This document shows, in pieces, positions 17,605 to 48,972 of a DNA stretch of 64,000 nucleotides. The first letter of the stretch is position 1. Every line of letters starts with the position of its first letter. The notes beneath the pieces were generated by a model. That model had not been told where the DNA came from, made no database searches, and worked only from the letters and a program-made list of their open reading frames with translations. This stretch comes from Escherichia coli (GTDB taxonomy: Bacteria; Pseudomonadota; Gammaproteobacteria; Enterobacterales; Enterobacteriaceae), in the NCBI RefSeq assembly GCF_003334785.1, contig NZ_QOWV01000003.1; one strand, 5' to 3'. The position numbers were made by a program, and so were the translations under genes.

Positions 17605-18918
17605 ATGAAAAATATAAAATTCAGCCTGGCCTGGCAGATTCTGTTTGCTATGGTGCTGGGCATTCTCCTGGGAAGCTACCTGCACTACCATAGCGACAGC
17701 CGCGACTGGCTGGTCGTCAATTTGCTCTCTCCGGCGGGTGATATCTTCATCCATCTGATTAAAATGATTGTTGTGCCGATTGTGATCTCCACGCTGGTGG
17801 TGGGTATCGCGGGTGTTGGTGATGCCAAACAGCTCGGGCGTATTGGCGCGAAAACCATTATCTACTTCGAGGTGATCACCACCGTCGCCATCATTTTGGG
17901 GATCACTCTGGCGAACGTCTTCCAGCCCGGTGCCGGGGTGGATATGTCGCAGTTGGCGACCGTCGATATCTCGAAATATCAGAGCACTACGGAAGCGGTA
18001 CAAAGCAGTTCCCACGGCATTATGGGCACGATTTTGTCGCTGGTGCCGACGAACATTGTGGCGTCGATGGCGAAAGGCGAAATGCTGCCGATCATCTTTT
18101 TCTCGGTGCTGTTTGGTCTGGGGCTTTCTTCCCTGCCCGCGACGCATCGTGAACCGCTGGTGACCGTGTTCCGCTCCATCTCTGAAACCATGTTTAAAGT
18201 GACTCACATGGTGATGCGTTATGCACCGGTGGGTGTGTTTGCGCTGATTGCGGTGACGGTGGCTAACTTTGGTTTCTCGTCTCTGTGGCCACTGGCGAAA
18301 CTGGTGCTGCTGGTGCATTTCGCCATTCTGTTCTTCGCGCTGGTAGTGCTGGGAATTGTGGCGCGCCTGTGCGGGTTAAGCGTCTGGATCCTGATTCGTA
18401 TTCTGAAAGATGAGCTGATTCTGGCGTACTCCACTGCCAGCTCTGAAAGCGTGCTGCCGCGAATTATTGAGAAGATGGAAGCCTACGGAGCACCGGCGTC
18501 GATCACCAGTTTCGTGGTGCCGACCGGTTACTCTTTTAACCTTGATGGTTCGACGCTGTATCAAAGTATTGCCGCTATCTTCATCGCGCAGTTGTATGGC
18601 ATTGACCTGTCCATCTGGCAGGAAATCATTCTGGTGCTGACGCTGATGGTGACCTCGAAAGGGATTGCTGGCGTGCCTGGCGTGTCGTTTGTGGTGTTGC
18701 TGGCAACGCTGGGTAGCGTAGGTATTCCGCTGGAAGGTCTGGCGTTTATTGCTGGTGTTGACCGTATCCTCGACATGGCGCGTACTGCGCTGAACGTGGT
18801 GGGTAATGCGCTGGCGGTGCTGGTGATTGCCAAGTGGGAACACAAATTTGACCGTAAGAAAGCGCTGGCTTATGAGCGTGAAGTGCTGGGCAAATTTGAT
18901 AAAACTGCGGATCAATAA
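17605..18918 (+). CDS. gltP: Glutamate/aspartate:proton symporter (DAACS family)
   Basis: 437-aa membrane ORF MKNIKFSLAWQILFAMVLGILLG... Confidence 0.95.
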   Translation: MKNIKFSLAWQILFAMVLGILLGSYLHYHSDSRDWLVVNLLSPAGDIFIHLIKMIVVPIVISTLVVGIAGVGDAKQLGRIGAKTIIYFEVITTVAIILGITLANVFQPGAGVDMSQLATVDISKYQSTTEAVQSSSHGIMGTILSLVPTNIVASMAKGEMLPIIFFSVLFGLGLSSLPATHREPLVTVFRSISETMFKVTHMVMRYAPVGVFALIAVTVANFGFSSLWPLAKLVLLVHFAILFFALVVLGIVARLCGLSVWILIRILKDELILAYSTASSESVLPRIIEKMEAYGAPASITSFVVPTGYSFNLDGSTLYQSIAAIFIAQLYGIDLSIWQEIILVLTLMVTSKGIAGVPGVSFVVLLATLGSVGIPLEGLAFIAGVDRILDMARTALNVVGNALAVLVIAKWEHKFDRKKALAYEREVLGKFDKTADQ

Positions 18919-18958
18919 TTGAAGATTGCCGGGGATATCCACCCGGCAATGTGTGAAT

Positions 18959-19220
18959 GCCTGATGCGACGCTTGCCGCGTCTTATCAGGCCTACGCCAG
19001 ACAGCGCAATAGCCTGATTTAGCGTGATTTTGTAGGTCGGATAAGGCGTTTATGCCGCATCCGACATCAACGCCTGATGCGACGCTTAACGCGTCTTATC
19101 AGGCCTACGCCAGACAGCGCAATAGCCTGATTTAGCGTGATTTTGTAGGTCGGATAAGGCGTTTACGCCGCATCCGACATCAATGCCTGATGCGACGCTT
19201 GCCGCGTCTTATCAGGCCTA
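18959..19220. repeat. BIME: tandem array of REP-containing units (period about 113 bp, about 2.3 copies)
   Basis: Unit GCCTGATGCGACGCTT..CGCGTCTTATCAGGCCTAC...GTAGGTCGGATAAGGCGTTTA.GCCGCATCCGACATCAA repeats at 18959, 19072 and 19185. Confidence 0.9.
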
Positions 19221-19222
19221 TC

Positions 19223-19912
19223 TTAACCGTTGGTTAATTTTTCAAACTCTTCACACCCGGTATCAAACCCTTCCATACAGCTCAGGTTCAACCAGTGCAG
19301 CGCCTTTTGCTTGTTCTTCTCGATAAAACCTTCTTCACCGTTTAAGAACATCATTCCCGCCCAGTACTCGGAATAACCGGTTCGGGAAATTGCAGAGCTG
19401 CGTTTGAAATACCAGGTTGCCTTGTCATCGTCGGCCTTAATGCCCACGCCGTTGGCGTAAATCAAACCAAGCAGCATTTGGGCATCGACGGCAGAGTCGT
19501 TCTCCAGATCTTCCGAGGCGTTTTCTAACAGCGAAATTGCCTTTGGATAATCCGGTTTACCCGCTTGAGTATTTACCAGAATATGCGCCAGCGTTACTTC
19601 ACCTTCTTTACTGCCCGCTTGCGCCGCTTTCTCTGCAAGAACTTTTGCTTGTGGATAGTCCAGACTGACCGGATTGGTGATTTTGATCTGCGCCAGCAGC
19701 GCGCAGGCATCAGCATCACCGCTGTCGGCGGCTTTCTGTGCCCAATATTCGGCTTTGCTCAAATCGCCGGAGCTAAACCAGCTGTCGGCAAGAAAATATT
19801 GTGCGCGTCGGTCCCCGGCCTCTGCTGCCTTTAAATACTGGCTGCCAGGCTCGGAGTCGTTGGCGTGGGCAAAGAATGTCAAAAACAACATCAATGCGAT
19901 AATTTTTTTCAT
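19223..19912 (-). CDS. yjcO: Sel1-like (TPR-related) repeat protein with signal peptide
   Basis: 229-aa ORF MKKIIALMLFLTFFAHA...; repeated A-x-YxLA/G Sel1-type motifs. Confidence 0.85.
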   Translation of the reverse strand: MKKIIALMLFLTFFAHANDSEPGSQYLKAAEAGDRRAQYFLADSWFSSGDLSKAEYWAQKAADSGDADACALLAQIKITNPVSLDYPQAKVLAEKAAQAGSKEGEVTLAHILVNTQAGKPDYPKAISLLENASEDLENDSAVDAQMLLGLIYANGVGIKADDDKATWYFKRSSAISRTGYSEYWAGMMFLNGEEGFIEKNKQKALHWLNLSCMEGFDTGCEEFEKLTNG

Positions 19913-20005: not shown

Positions 20006-22153
20006 TTACGCCAGTGCCGCTTCGCGCAGGCGAGTTTTCAACTTGTTGTACTCGTCAATCACGTACTGCTCGGCGGCGCGCTGATCGGCGATCGGCTCGA
20101 CGCGAACGGCGCAGTATTTGTACTCCGGCGTTTTCGTAATCGGGCTTAAGTTTTCAGTAACCAGCTCGTTACAGGCACCAATCCACCACTGGTAGGTCAT
20201 GTAAATCGCCCCTTTGTTCGGACGATCGCTGACCTGCGCACGGGTGATAATTTTGCCTTTACGCGAGTGCACCCAAACCAATGCCTCATCTTCAATACCC
20301 AGACGTTTGGCGTCTTCGGTATTGATTTGTGCGTAGCCAGGTTCATCAGCCAGCGCCGCCAGTGCCGCACAGTTACCGGTCATCGAACGGCAAGAGTAGT
20401 GACCAACTTCACGCACCGTTGACAGTACCATCGGGTACTCGTCGGTGAGTTTGTCGATTGGCGCTACCCAGTCGCAGGTGAAGAACTGCGCCAGACCGTT
20501 CGGGGTATCAAACTTCTCTTTAAACAGATAAGAAGTCCCCTGATCGGCATCTGAAGTATCGCGGCAAGGCCACTGAATGAAGCCCAGTTCGCCCATTTTC
20601 TCGTAAGTCGCACCGTAGAAATCCGGGCACAGATGACGCAACTCATCCCAGATCTCCTGGGTGTTGTTGTAGTGCATCGGATAACCCATACGGGTGGCGA
20701 TTTCACTGATGATTTGCCAGTCCGTTTTCAGATCCCATTTCGGTTCAACCGCCTTGAAGAAACGCTGGAAGCCACGGTCAGCCGCAGTAAACACGCCTTC
20801 ATGCTCGCCCCACGACGTTGACGGTAAAATAACATCCGCCGCCGACGCGGTTTTGGTCATAAAGATGTCCTGAACGATAACCAGTTCCAGATCTTCAAAG
20901 GCTTTACGTACTGCCGACAGCTCCGCGTCAGTTTGTAGCGGATCTTCGCCCATAATGTACGCGGCACGCACTTCGCCATGCGCTGCGCGGTGCGGCAGCT
21001 CGCTGATGCGATAGCCGGTATGCGCTGGCAGGCTTTCCACGCCCCAGGCTTTGGCGAATTTCTCGCGGTTAGCCGGATCTTTCACGTACTGGTATCCCGG
21101 ATACGTATCCGGCAGCGCGCCCATATCGCAGGCACCCTGAACGTTGTTCTGACCACGAACCGGGTTAACACCCGCATGCGGCTTACCGAGGTTACCGGTC
21201 AGCATCGCGAGGCTGGTCAGAGAACGCACGGTTTCCACGCCCTGGTAGAACTGGGTTACACCCATGCCCCACAGGATGGCGGCGCTTTTCGCCTGGGCAT
21301 ACATCCGTGCCGCCTGACGAATCTCACTGGCGCTGACGCCGGTGATATCTTCAACCGACTCCGGCGTGTAGCCTTCAACGATTTTACGATACTCTTCAAA
21401 GCCTTCTGTACGTGAAGCGACGAACGCTTTGTCGTACAGATTTTCTTCAATAATGACATGGCCCATCGCATTCAACAGCGCGATGTTCGAGCCGTTTTTC
21501 AGTGCAATGTGCATGTCAGCAATGCGCGCGGTTTCAATTTTGCGCGGATCGCAGACGATAATTTTCGCCCCGTTACGTTTAGCGTTAATTACGTGATTCG
21601 CCACGATTGGGTGGGAATCCGCCGGGTTGTACCCGAAAACGAACACTAAATCGGTATTATCAATTTCGTTAATAGCATTGCTCATTGCGCCATTACCGAC
21701 CGATTGGTGCAGACCTGCAACCGATGGGCCGTGTCAGACACGAGCGCAGCAGTCAACGTTATTGGTACCAATAACGGCGCGCGCAAATTTTTGCATTACA
21801 TAGTTGGTTTCGTTACCCGTACCACGCGAGGAGCCGGTCGTCTGGATGGCATCCGGACCGTACTTCTCTTTGATGGCGCTCAGGCGCTCGGCAACGTAAT
21901 TCAGTGCCTCATCCCAGGAAACAGGTTCGAGTTTGCCGCCACGCTGGCGACGGATCATGGGGGTTTTCAGGCGCGGGGTCAGGATCTGGGTATCGTTAAT
22001 GAAGTCCCAGCCATAATAACCCTTCAGACACAGGGTACCCTGGTTGGTTTTCCCCTGCGCTGCCTCCGCCCGGACGATTTTGCCGTTATCGACGACCAGG
22101 TTGATTTTGCAACCTGATGCGCAATAGGGGCAAACCGTGACGACTTTTTTCAT
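20006..22153 (-). CDS. fdhF: Formate dehydrogenase H, selenocysteine-containing molybdoenzyme (in-frame UGA = Sec140)
   Basis: Track ORFs 21734-22153 and 20006-21685 are in the same frame, separated by one in-frame TGA (plus-strand TCA at 21734-21736); combined 715 codons; N-terminal CPYCASGC Fe-S motif. Confidence 0.95.
21690..21736 (-). other. SECIS stem-loop directing selenocysteine insertion at the fdhF UGA
   Basis: mRNA reads UGACACGGCCCAUCGGUUGCAGGUCUGCACCAAUCGGUCGGUAAUGG directly 3' of the UGA, matching the fdhF SECIS as I recall it. Confidence 0.85.
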
Positions 22154-23817: not shown

Positions 23818-25865
23818 TGCGTGGCTCCTTGTGCCTGTTCCGTGGCGGGCGTTAATGCCGGGGCTGTCCAGTCTGGCAAGCGGGCGAAAAGCTGGCAGAC
23901 GTGTTGCTCCTGTTTTAATAAGGTGGGCAGGATGGCCTGAGAGGCGGGTGTCTCTTCAAGCGTTATTTGAGGAGAACGGCTGAGTGCGGTTGCCAGACCG
24001 GCAGCGTATTTCTCCAGGGCGTCGGCAAACTGACCTGCTCTGTCCGGCTGTAGTGCGTTATCCAGCGCCTGCGCCGAGTTCCAGGTGGCATCCCAGGCGT
24101 GAAGAAGATCGCGGCCCTGACGAATAACCGTTTGCGAACGTTCAATCAGTAATGCGCGTTCTTCGCTGTCCAGTTGACGCTCCAGCGCCACGCGTTGGCA
24201 CATCTCTTCACAGGCATTAAACGCCGCATGCAGACCGATACGAATTTGCAGATAAGTGCGCAGAGCCGTGACTTCCTGCTGGCGTGGGATCCGCATTACT
24301 TTACTTAACATACCCAGCGTGCCAGCCAGTTTTTGCGGCAGTGTGCGCGCTTCACTTTCAGGCCAGACAAAGGTGTAAATCACCGCGGACACCACGGTAC
24401 CAATGATGATACCCAGGGCGCGATCGCGAATTTCCACCAGGTCGTACACTGGGCCAAAAACGTTTTCGAGCGTGGCGAGCGCGAAGGTGACCACCATCTG
24501 TGTGCCGATATAAGAAGAGCGTTCAGAGCTGGTGGCAATCCATGCGCCCAACAGGAAAATCGGTGCCAGCACAAACAGCAATTCGACAATATTGTCCAGC
24601 CAGGGCATGACCAGTAGCGTGAATAACAGCGCCAGAATCGCGCCGCAAAAGGCCCCGCCAAAACGCAGCACCATCTTCTGGTACGACGAACCGACATTTG
24701 GGTTAGCGACGATCACGCATGTCAGCATACAGGTGTGAATGCCTTCCCAGTCCACGCCGCTGTAAAAGGTGTAACAGATCAAACAGGCGAGCAGCGTTTT
24801 TACCGCGTAGCGCATATAGTCTGGATTGGTAAAAGCATCGGCGGCCATTGATGGCGGTTTGGCTGCGGGCGTTGGCGGCGTATTCGGGTCCATCTGACCC
24901 AGTTGTAACAACGTCTGGCAGATATTCTCCAGGTTACATTCCCGTGCCGCCATCGCTTCACTTTCACTGATCCGCCAGTCGCTTTGCCAGCACTGACCTT
25001 CAGCAACGGCATGCTGCAGCTTGTTGATTTCTGAAGCTAATTTTTGTCGGAATTCAATAATTGCCTGAGAATCAGCAAAAGAGGTGGGATCGTAGCGATT
25101 CAGCGTCGAGTAAATGTAGGTTACCGTTGCCACGCAGCTTTGCCACCATGCGTTTTGAGTTCGCCAGTTGGCATCGTCCGCGAGGCAAAAGACATTGAGT
25201 TTTTGTAGCGCCAGCGCCTCTCTTTCAATCCGCGTTTCGGGTAGCGGTGCGAGGCTGTCTGTCAGGTGACTAATGGCATCATCAAGCCGATCATTAAGCG
25301 CCTGATGCATTTGCGAAATGGCACGACTGGGAAACCACAGCACGCCGATTAACGTCATCAGCAAGGTTGGATAGAGGCCAACAACGATACACCACAGCGT
25401 TAAGCGCACGACCACTTCCGGATAGTCGAGCATGGCGGGGAAGGTTTGCCCGTAAATAGCGACAATGGCGACGGCGAAAAAGACCAGCCCCAAGCGATGG
25501 GTGCGCATCAAAAACATGCAGCCCATCAGGATCGGTCCGGCGATGATCAATCGGATCAACGGTTCGCCGTATGACCATTTGTAGATCAAAAACAGGCTGC
25601 CGATCTCCAGCACCGTGGCAACCACAAACAAGATCGCGACAAATTTGGTGTAAAACGCGTTCGACTGAATACCGTAAAACAGCACTGCCAGCGATAACGC
25701 CACAAAAGGGATCTCAAAGGTCATCGAGATCAGAATCACCAGCAGGCAGCCTACCCAGAGTTGCACGGTCTGCGGCACGCGACCTGGTCGCCGCTCGCTT
25801 AACTCTTCATGAAAGAACGCCAGCAGCCTGACCACCGGTAATGGCAGGGAGTTGAGCGCGCTCAT
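23814..25865 (-). CDS. mdtO: Inner-membrane efflux protein (AaeB/PET-type)
   Basis: 683-aa membrane ORF overlapping mdtP and mdtN. Confidence 0.9.
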   Translation of the reverse strand: MSALNSLPLPVVRLLAFFHEELSERRPGRVPQTVQLWVGCLLVILISMTFEIPFVALSLAVLFYGIQSNAFYTKFVAILFVVATVLEIGSLFLIYKWSYGEPLIRLIIAGPILMGCMFLMRTHRLGLVFFAVAIVAIYGQTFPAMLDYPEVVVRLTLWCIVVGLYPTLLMTLIGVLWFPSRAISQMHQALNDRLDDAISHLTDSLAPLPETRIEREALALQKLNVFCLADDANWRTQNAWWQSCVATVTYIYSTLNRYDPTSFADSQAIIEFRQKLASEINKLQHAVAEGQCWQSDWRISESEAMAARECNLENICQTLLQLGQMDPNTPPTPAAKPPSMAADAFTNPDYMRYAVKTLLACLICYTFYSGVDWEGIHTCMLTCVIVANPNVGSSYQKMVLRFGGAFCGAILALLFTLLVMPWLDNIVELLFVLAPIFLLGAWIATSSERSSYIGTQMVVTFALATLENVFGPVYDLVEIRDRALGIIIGTVVSAVIYTFVWPESEARTLPQKLAGTLGMLSKVMRIPRQQEVTALRTYLQIRIGLHAAFNACEEMCQRVALERQLDSEERALLIERSQTVIRQGRDLLHAWDATWNSAQALDNALQPDRAGQFADALEKYAAGLATALSRSPQITLEETPASQAILPTLLKQEQHVCQLFARLPDWTAPALTPATEQAQGATQ

Positions 25866-40682: not shown

Positions 40683-40703
40683 TTTTCGCCTCGTGGTTCG
40701 GGT

Positions 40704-40788
<85 letters not shown>

Positions 40789-40792
40789 CGGC

Positions 40793-46030: not shown

Positions 46031-46120
46031 CTGTAGGCCGGATAAGGTGCTTGCACCGCATCCGGCATCAACGCCTGCACATTGTCGGATGCGACGCCGG
46101 GGCGTCTTATCCGACCTACG
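46031..46120. repeat. REP element pair between phnD and phnE
   Basis: GTAGGCCGGATAAGGTGCTTGCACCGCATCCGGCA and GTCGGATGCGACGCCGGGGCGTCTTATCCGACCTAC. Confidence 0.85.
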
Positions 46121-48528: not shown

Positions 48529-48592
48529 GATGGTGACCTCAGTTAAGAGAAGCCAGTTAAGTGTAGTTCGAAATTTATACAGATGAGAGGCG

Positions 48593-48972
<380 letters not shown>

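Follow-up and report, generated by a model that had tools for sequence, protein, structure and literature searches.

What is the repeated DNA that occupies most of the space between the convergent genes gltP and yjcO of Escherichia coli, how does it change from strain to strain, and does it matter to the two genes whose transcripts run into it? We addressed this question in a 64,000-nt stretch of E. coli DNA (hereafter, the window), in which the gap between the two genes is 304 bp long and the repeat takes up 265 of the 304 bp. The gltP stop codon lies at 18918 and the yjcO stop codon at 19223 on the minus strand, and the gene names come from RefSeq records that are identical (100%) to the window. 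An earlier reading of the letters alone (the sequence-only reading) had proposed at this place a tandem array of BIMEs containing REPs, after gltP, with a period of 113 bp and about 2.3 copies. The setting is confirmed by the flanking ORFs and their RefSeq annotation, and the array itself by two programs. In particular, Tandem Repeats Finder delimits it at 18959–19220, with a period of 113, 2.3 copies, 95% matches, no indels and a score of 496, and a gapless repeat finder returns two 113-nt copies (18956–19068 and 19069–19181) that are 96% identical, together with a 39-nt REP block occurring three times at a spacing of 113 nt. Tandem periodicity, on which the reading depended, is therefore found with the same period by both methods, and a 262-nt repeat at 95% identity far exceeds what chance could originate. 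The remainder of the gap, on the gltP side, holds a separate hairpin that is not a REP; it has no U-tract after it and was not called as an intrinsic terminator, and it is kept, with small variations, in all of the alleles examined.

Within the array an inverted-repeat search with a 6-nt seed detects five imperfect palindromes, two per unit, and the breakdown into modules gives the order Z2-REP followed twice by a 36-nt linker, an inverted Y-REP, a 6-nt linker and a further Z2-REP (Table 1). A CRISPR array, already dismissed by the sequence-only reading, is rejected here as well, because the sequences between the palindromes repeat (both 36-nt linkers have one and the same sequence, so that no unique spacers are present) and because the orientation of the palindromes alternates. 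Small ORFs that can be drawn over the array, such as one of 47 aa on the plus strand at 19183–19326, were likewise discarded as chance ORFs within REPs, antisense to yjcO. Both long linkers contain 2.1 copies of a 10-nt sub-repeat, TAGCCTGATT (19010–19030 and 19123–19143), which overlaps the IHF-like core discussed below.

Table 1. Coordinates of the features of the gltP–yjcO gap and of its flanking genes, as positions in the 64,000-nt window.
Feature	Position	Strand	Basis and remarks
gltP CDS (glutamate/aspartate:proton symporter)	17605–18918	+	ORF and RefSeq annotation; 3' UTR enters the array
Non-REP hairpin, TTGCCGGG / CCCGGCAA, 8-nt loop	18926–18949	+	Starts 7 nt past the gltP stop; 9-pair stem, both strands
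Z2-type REP no. 1, ends CTAC	18959–18995	+	Palindrome search, module breakdown; type of the Z2 half of naRNA4/REP325
Long linker no. 1, 36 nt, L-like	18996–19031		Contains the 10-nt sub-repeat, 2.1 copies
IHF-like core of linker no. 1, AATCAGGCTATTG	19007–19019	-	Matches WATCARNNNNTTR; 1 mismatch to WATCAANNNNTTR
Y-type REP no. 1, inverted, plus strand begins GTAG	19032–19065	-	Palindrome search, module breakdown
naRNA4 (RF02564) match, Y–short linker–Z2	19035–19105	+	71.4 bits (gathering score 59.5)
Short linker ATCAAC, Y to Z2	19066–19071		Module breakdown
Z2-type REP no. 2, loop variant TTAACG	19072–19108	+	Palindrome search, module breakdown
Long linker no. 2, 36 nt, L-like, identical to no. 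1	19109–19144		IHF-like core at 19120–19132 (minus strand)
Y-type REP no. 2, inverted	19145–19178	-	Palindrome search, module breakdown
Second naRNA4-like Y–Z2 pair	19148–19218	+	79.0 bits (gathering score 59.5)
Short linker ATCAAT	19179–19184		Module breakdown
Z2-type REP no. 3, terminal copy	19185–19220	+	Stem onset 5 nt past the stop in the yjcO mRNA
yjcO CDS (Sel1-repeat protein)	19223–19912	-	ORF and RefSeq annotation; stop codon 2 nt from the array end

REPs are recognized as imperfect extragenic palindromes of about 35 nt with GTAG or CTAC at the foot and a mismatch in the stem. The five palindromes of the array, all located in the gltP–yjcO gap, have 14-nt arms with 83–86% complementarity and begin with GTAG or end with CTAC, except for the last one, which reads CTAT. 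As for the higher-order elements that they form, BIME-1 is a single-copy combination of Z1 and Y whose long linker, of the L type, frequently includes an IHF site, BIME-2 consists of tandem copies of Z2 and Y, with short or variable linkers and in numbers that differ between strains, and multi-copy chimeras of the two are termed atypical BIMEs (PMC3333891). Full-length alignment to the two halves of naRNA4/REP325 places Y and Z2 in alternating inverted orientation, and the tandem number, 2.3 copies here and 0 to about 7 elsewhere, is variable, as is typical of BIME-2. Having Z2 in place of Z1 and being tandem, the array is not a BIME-1; the Z1 form GCCTGATGCGCTACGCTTATCAGGC, found at cueO–gcd in MG1655, differs from the Z2 of this locus. 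The linkers of BIME-2 are of the S, s, l or r types and not of the L type: the 6-nt short linker of the array fits this description, and the long one resembles three L linkers of MG1655. These features make it most fitting to call the locus a hybrid, with palindromes and tandem arrangement of the BIME-2 type and an L-like linker of the BIME-1 type, and under the published scheme (PMC3333891) it would be an 'atypical' (chimeric) BIME.

The BIME identity claimed by the sequence-only reading is further upheld by Rfam, in which naRNA4 (RF02564) is a 77-nt model of one Y–linker–Z2 unit of REP325, with a gathering score of 59.5 bits. Both units of the array score above this threshold (Table 1) and are aligned over the full length of the model (positions 1–77), the short linker being the sole gap; the Y stem shows a compensatory GTCGG/CCGAC variant. 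REP325 itself, the BIME-2 of yjdM–yjdN and type locus of naRNA4, is also in the window (48592–48968, minus strand), with four full naRNA4 matches of 95–111 bits and a 100-nt period. The two loci share alternating inverted Y and Z2 palindromes, tandem arrangement, variable copy number and naRNA4 matches; however, REP325 differs in its period (100 vs. 113 nt), in its short linker (12–13 vs. 6 nt), in having an unrelated 23-nt spacer in place of the 36-nt L-like linker, and in the Y stem, where the GTCGG/CCGAC variant is found at gltP–yjcO. Single Y–Z2 pairs above the gathering score are present elsewhere in the window, at 8429–8499 (plus strand, 84.1 bits) and 46036–46116 (plus strand, 69.1 bits), and another REP pair lies at 40702–40790.

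These matches could be taken to mean that the array is a cluster of genes for small nucleoid-associated RNAs, similar to naRNA4, that bind HU and condense the chromosome, as was proposed for the Y–Z2 units of REP325 with the suggestion that homologous REPs may act likewise (Qian et al., 2015; PMC4550694). The model, however, is in effect a Y–Z2 REP pair that any such BIME unit matches, and therefore a match to it informs on the type of sequence and not on its function. Moreover, a 2026 preprint, with the senior author of the 2015 work among its authors, reported neither a compaction effect of REP325/naRNA4 nor contacts between REPs, and re-assigned REP325 to local termination and stabilization. 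At the gltP–yjcO locus about 40% of the 58 genomes sampled (see below) have no Y–Z2 pair at all, and we regard a nucleoid RNA function of the array as extremely improbable.

The long linker is the part of the unit that deserves closer attention. No match to the strict IHF consensus WATCAANNNNTTR was found within the array, which by itself would speak against IHF. On the minus strand, each long linker nevertheless contains AATCAGGCTATTG, which has a single mismatch to the strict consensus, with G and not A at position 6 of the core, and perfectly matches WATCARNNNNTTR, the looser WATCAR form of the consensus that is in use in the literature; this match and the homology to L linkers described here alter that view. 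Since no BIME-1 is present in the 64,000-nt window, 250 kb of MG1655 were scanned as a comparator, and three REP pairs with linkers of 33–35 nt were obtained, including the canonical Z1–L–Y BIME-1 of cueO–gcd. Ungapped matches of the array linker to the three MG1655 L linkers total 55, vs. 39.9 +/- 3.0 for shuffled sequences, and none of 10000 shuffles reaches 55. Position 13, numbered from the Y end, is where the IHF core begins both in the linker of the array and in the MG1655 L linkers, with the exception of mutT–yacG (position 12). Because of this significant similarity and of the homologous position of the core, the long linker appears, as judged from its sequence, to belong to the L family, and it is plausible that IHF binds it, given that the linker is L-like and its core near to the consensus. 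The closest comparison is with the BIME-1 (RIP-RIB) of cueO–gcd (MG1655 138728–138762): both have a head-to-head linker of 35–36 nt in which the core has the same offset, and the ungapped identity of the two linkers is 60%, but BIME-1 is single-copy and contains Z1, whereas the gltP–yjcO array is tandem, contains Z2 and has G for A at position 6 of the core. In MG1655, two single-copy BIMEs, at 5563–5673 (yaaX–yaaA) and 111475–111583 (mutT–yacG), combine an L-type linker with a Z2-like REP, so the pairing of L with Z1 is not strict in K-12.

The Y REPs offer a second candidate protein site. Cleavage by gyrase shows an enrichment in BIME-2 elements, with a preference for Y REPs, and continues under a block of transcription (PMC6379681); by analogy, it is plausible that those of the array are gyrase sites. 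In stating that such arrays bind IHF and gyrase, the sequence-only reading describes the family and not a result for gltP–yjcO. If both proteins bound, the array might be chiefly an architectural element at the DNA level, with repeated IHF sites in the linkers and repeated gyrase sites in the Y REPs building a topological barrier between the converging units. Such a role would be in keeping with the fact that each unit has an L-like linker whose IHF-like core occupies the homologous position, with the preference and transcription independence of gyrase, and with the positive supercoils that would be expected to gather between convergent genes. Against it, the core departs from the strict consensus and is not preserved in nature: it is deleted in the allele of O157:H7, it carries a change of W to C in the alleles of ST1193, DA61218 and MS1494, and in many strains the whole array is absent. 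The deletion and mutation of the core speak against strong selection for binding by IHF. The literature supplements searched gave no ChIP or Topo-seq evidence for the locus, and neither gltP nor yjcO is mentioned in the supplement text of three papers in which gyrase or IHF data were sought (PMC6379681, PMC13036160 and PMC12306157). On balance, a primarily architectural role appears unlikely.

The variability of the locus is best appreciated across genomes. A query made of both flanks, without the insert, found its target in 5422 of the 5426 complete E. coli genomes, and the length of the insert between the flanks was measured in 58 records evenly spaced down the ranking. The sequence-only reading had anticipated that copy number varies between strains, and the sample spans 0 to about 7 units. 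The most common state (23 genomes) is an insert of 38–41 bp consisting of a single Z2 REP alone, and from this proportion, about 40%, it follows that the array itself is dispensable. About one unit is found in eight genomes (108, 138 or 151–152 bp), and another eight have the two units of the window (263–268 bp), with one further genome at 284 bp in which two units are accompanied by an expansion of the linker. Larger inserts measure 377 bp in one genome (three units; BL21), 449 bp in five (about 3.6 units by length, with differing ends), 490–491 bp in seven (four units), 602–604 bp in two (five units, MG1655 type) and 674 or 788–789 bp in three (about 5.6 and 6.6 units by length, with six and seven Y REPs). 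The splitting of 14 alleles into their modules shows in-register gain and loss of complete 113-bp units. The more divergent alleles of MS1494, NQ3, ST1193 and DA61218 have a truncated Z2 REP at either end of the array and between 1 and 7 Y REPs. One element is constant: in every allele examined, including those of E. whittamii and Escherichia sp. E1V33, a Z2 REP, or its truncated derivative in alleles of the ST1193/DA61218 type, abuts the yjcO stop codon.

Differences of the same kind are found among K-12 laboratory strains that have identical GltP and YjcO proteins. MG1655 has a gap of 641 bp with five units, W3110 and C3026 have gaps of 530 bp with four, NEB10-beta has four as estimated from the insert length, and MC1061 has a 304-bp gap with two units, identical to that of the window. 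The variants of the unit alternate along the array, so that removal of one 226-bp double unit from the 4-unit allele yields the 2-unit allele, and the MG1655 allele corresponds to that of W3110 plus one unit and with a 2-nt deletion in the last Y loop; some of the differences in unit number between assemblies could be errors of assembly in repeats. Within the linker, strain GF31 has about four copies of the TAGCCTGATT sub-repeat and a length of 55 nt, whereas O157:H7 has lost 12 nt and is left with a linker of 23 nt, and this change is a second, smaller layer of slippage polymorphism.

As regards its distribution, a 52-nt probe centered on the long linker was found in 2591 of the 5426 genomes, at one to six places in each, which is a lower bound because the probe needs an exact word of 28 nt and misses divergent linkers. 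The linker appears specific to gltP–yjcO, since its five places in the MG1655 record are the five units of the locus. It also matches three plasmid-sized records, for example NZ_CP048307.1 (94 kb, E. coli strain 9) at 24858–24909, which may reflect either the capture of a chromosomal gltP–yjcO segment by a plasmid or a mis-assigned contig. In NZ_CM192145.1 (E. coli Ec-U18), the flank query matches by its first 83 nt only (2555342–2555424) and gltP stands beside a molybdopterin-dependent oxidoreductase, which suggests that a deletion or rearrangement removed the array together with yjcO. Beyond E. coli, one genome per species was scanned for the exact pattern, and, leaving aside one probable contaminant (see below), the linker was present only in Escherichia sp. 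E1V33 (four matches) and E. whittamii (two), in both cases between gltP and yjcO. As the same locus is occupied in these relatives, the presence of the array predates the diversification of E. coli, and the single-REP state is probably a derived collapse. A further match of the same scan, to a 240-bp contig (NZ_JAAIYA010000177.1; 0.53x coverage, 98% identical to the array) in the assembly of Pyxidicoccus caerfyrddinensis, is almost certainly E. coli contamination of a myxobacterial assembly.

With such variation, the array might be a purely selfish or neutral repeat that has no effect on its neighbors and whose copy number drifts by slippage and recombination. This explanation accounts well for the presence or absence of 0 to about 7 units between near-identical flanks, for the differences between laboratory strains and for the additional slippage of the 10-nt sub-repeat in the linker, as well as for the use of the array as a landing pad by IS1397: in E. 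coli SCU-316 (NZ_CP054371.1) an IS3-like element of the IS1397 family has inserted into the first Z2 REP of the gltP–yjcO gap, within its loop (1466–2814 of the extracted locus), in agreement with the known targeting of REPs by IS1397 (PMC1525189). What it leaves unexplained is that at least one Z2 REP or truncated derivative is found beside the yjcO stop in all of the alleles examined, and the 3'-end REPs described in the literature measurably alter termination, stability and translation. We therefore hold complete neutrality to be a possible but somewhat improbable explanation.

The route by which units are gained and lost would be either unequal homologous exchange or replication slippage between the identical 113- or 226-bp repeats, to which cleavage and strand transfer by the transposase TnpA_REP (RayT) might be an alternative or an addition. 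The exact locus is already in the experimental literature on this enzyme, since Ton-Hoang et al. (2012; PMC3333891) exposed a partial BIME "located at gltP-yjcO" of MG1655 (oligonucleotide B319) to TnpA_REP in vitro and observed cleavage at four sites in the linkers and at GACC|TACA. The BIME of MG1655 and that of the window share the locus, flanks that are 100% identical, the unit sequence and GACC|TACA, and differ in the number of units (five there and two in the window; four in W3110). The reported cleavage site GACCTACA is present in both units of the window's array, and on the minus strand of Y REP no. 1 GACC|TACA is the sequence reported as the TnpA_REP cleavage site B319(1) (PMC3333891). 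The array furthermore has the sequence features of a substrate of the enzyme, namely a complete REP, a 5' GTAG, a stem mismatch and an adjoining iREP/linker with C|T cleavage sites, and rayT is annotated in K-12. In EcoCyc numbering the gltP–yjcO BIME is probably REP321a-k, because the 11 palindromes of MG1655 agree with the letters a to k, a stop codon is no more than 15 nt away from the REP and the count of REP loci along the window reaches REP325 in order. A mobilome preprint includes REP321a-k in its list of REP regions that are shielded from exonuclease during stress; it detected no circular BIME junctions, which does not favor transposase models based on excision.

The position of the array between the ends of two converging genes makes its effects on RNA the natural place to look for a function. 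Both strands fold into consecutive REP hairpins, with z scores of –9.8 and –10.7 in comparison with shuffled sequences, and a consensus scan called no intrinsic terminator in the gltP–yjcO gap. For other loci it is reported that REP325 works as a terminator, with attenuation partly via Rho, and as a stabilizer of the mRNA, and that convergent gene pairs with a REP between them have higher expression (bioRxiv 10.64898/2026.03.23.713779). Furthermore, in the work of Liang, Rudd and Deutscher (2015), as cited in PMC12306157, a REP no more than 15 nt downstream of a stop codon stalls terminating ribosomes and lowers translation. At this locus the distance is short enough for yjcO, where the stem of the Z2 REP starts 5 nt after UAA, and too long for gltP, where the first REP is 40 nt past the stop. 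Both converging transcripts would thus end in the array or cross it, and each mRNA would acquire several stable hairpins in a row at its 3' end. Judging from REP325 and other REPs, these hairpins may attenuate, partly via Rho, the read-through into the opposite gene and may shield the upstream mRNA from 3'-to-5' exonucleases, and the terminal Z2 REP may in addition lower the translation of yjcO owing to its closeness to the stop codon. The array is thus most likely, by this analogy, a structured 3' end common to both converging genes, and the view that fits it best is that of a semi-selfish repeat, with modest regulatory side-effects on its surroundings, and not of a dedicated device.

As a whole, the best explanation is very probably that the locus is a chromosomal BIME made of head-to-tail 113-bp units (Z2 and inverted Y, with linkers of 36 and 6 nt) closed by an extra Z2, together with the gain and loss of units and the 3'-end role that are proposed above. 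A stronger version of the hybrid description would make each 113-bp unit a BIME-1-type IHF site joined to a Y REP preferred by gyrase, and the series from 0 to about 7 units a heritable and quickly mutable rheostat of local topology, protein occupancy and 3'-end processing of gltP and yjcO. If so, K-12 sublines with five, four or two units would differ in the expression of gltP and yjcO; this version strikes us as very unlikely.

Arrays of REPs and BIMEs have been described since the 1980s–90s, and that of gltP–yjcO is real, ordinary and already known; what our analysis adds is the kinship of its linker to the IHF-binding L linker of BIME-1 and an explicit allelic series. The latter is a natural resource, handy for studying the dependence of termination, mRNA stability and translation on the number of REPs between a pair of converging genes, and the locus, a clean and fast-changing minisatellite of 113 bp, could be used in strain typing and in checking the quality of assemblies. 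Among the other Rfam matches of the window are the SECIS_2 of fdhF (21687–21741, minus strand, 87.1 bits), the sRNA sraL (1051–1191, minus strand, 153 bits) and STnc630 (54634–54799, plus strand, 182 bits), all of which are expected for this region of E. coli.
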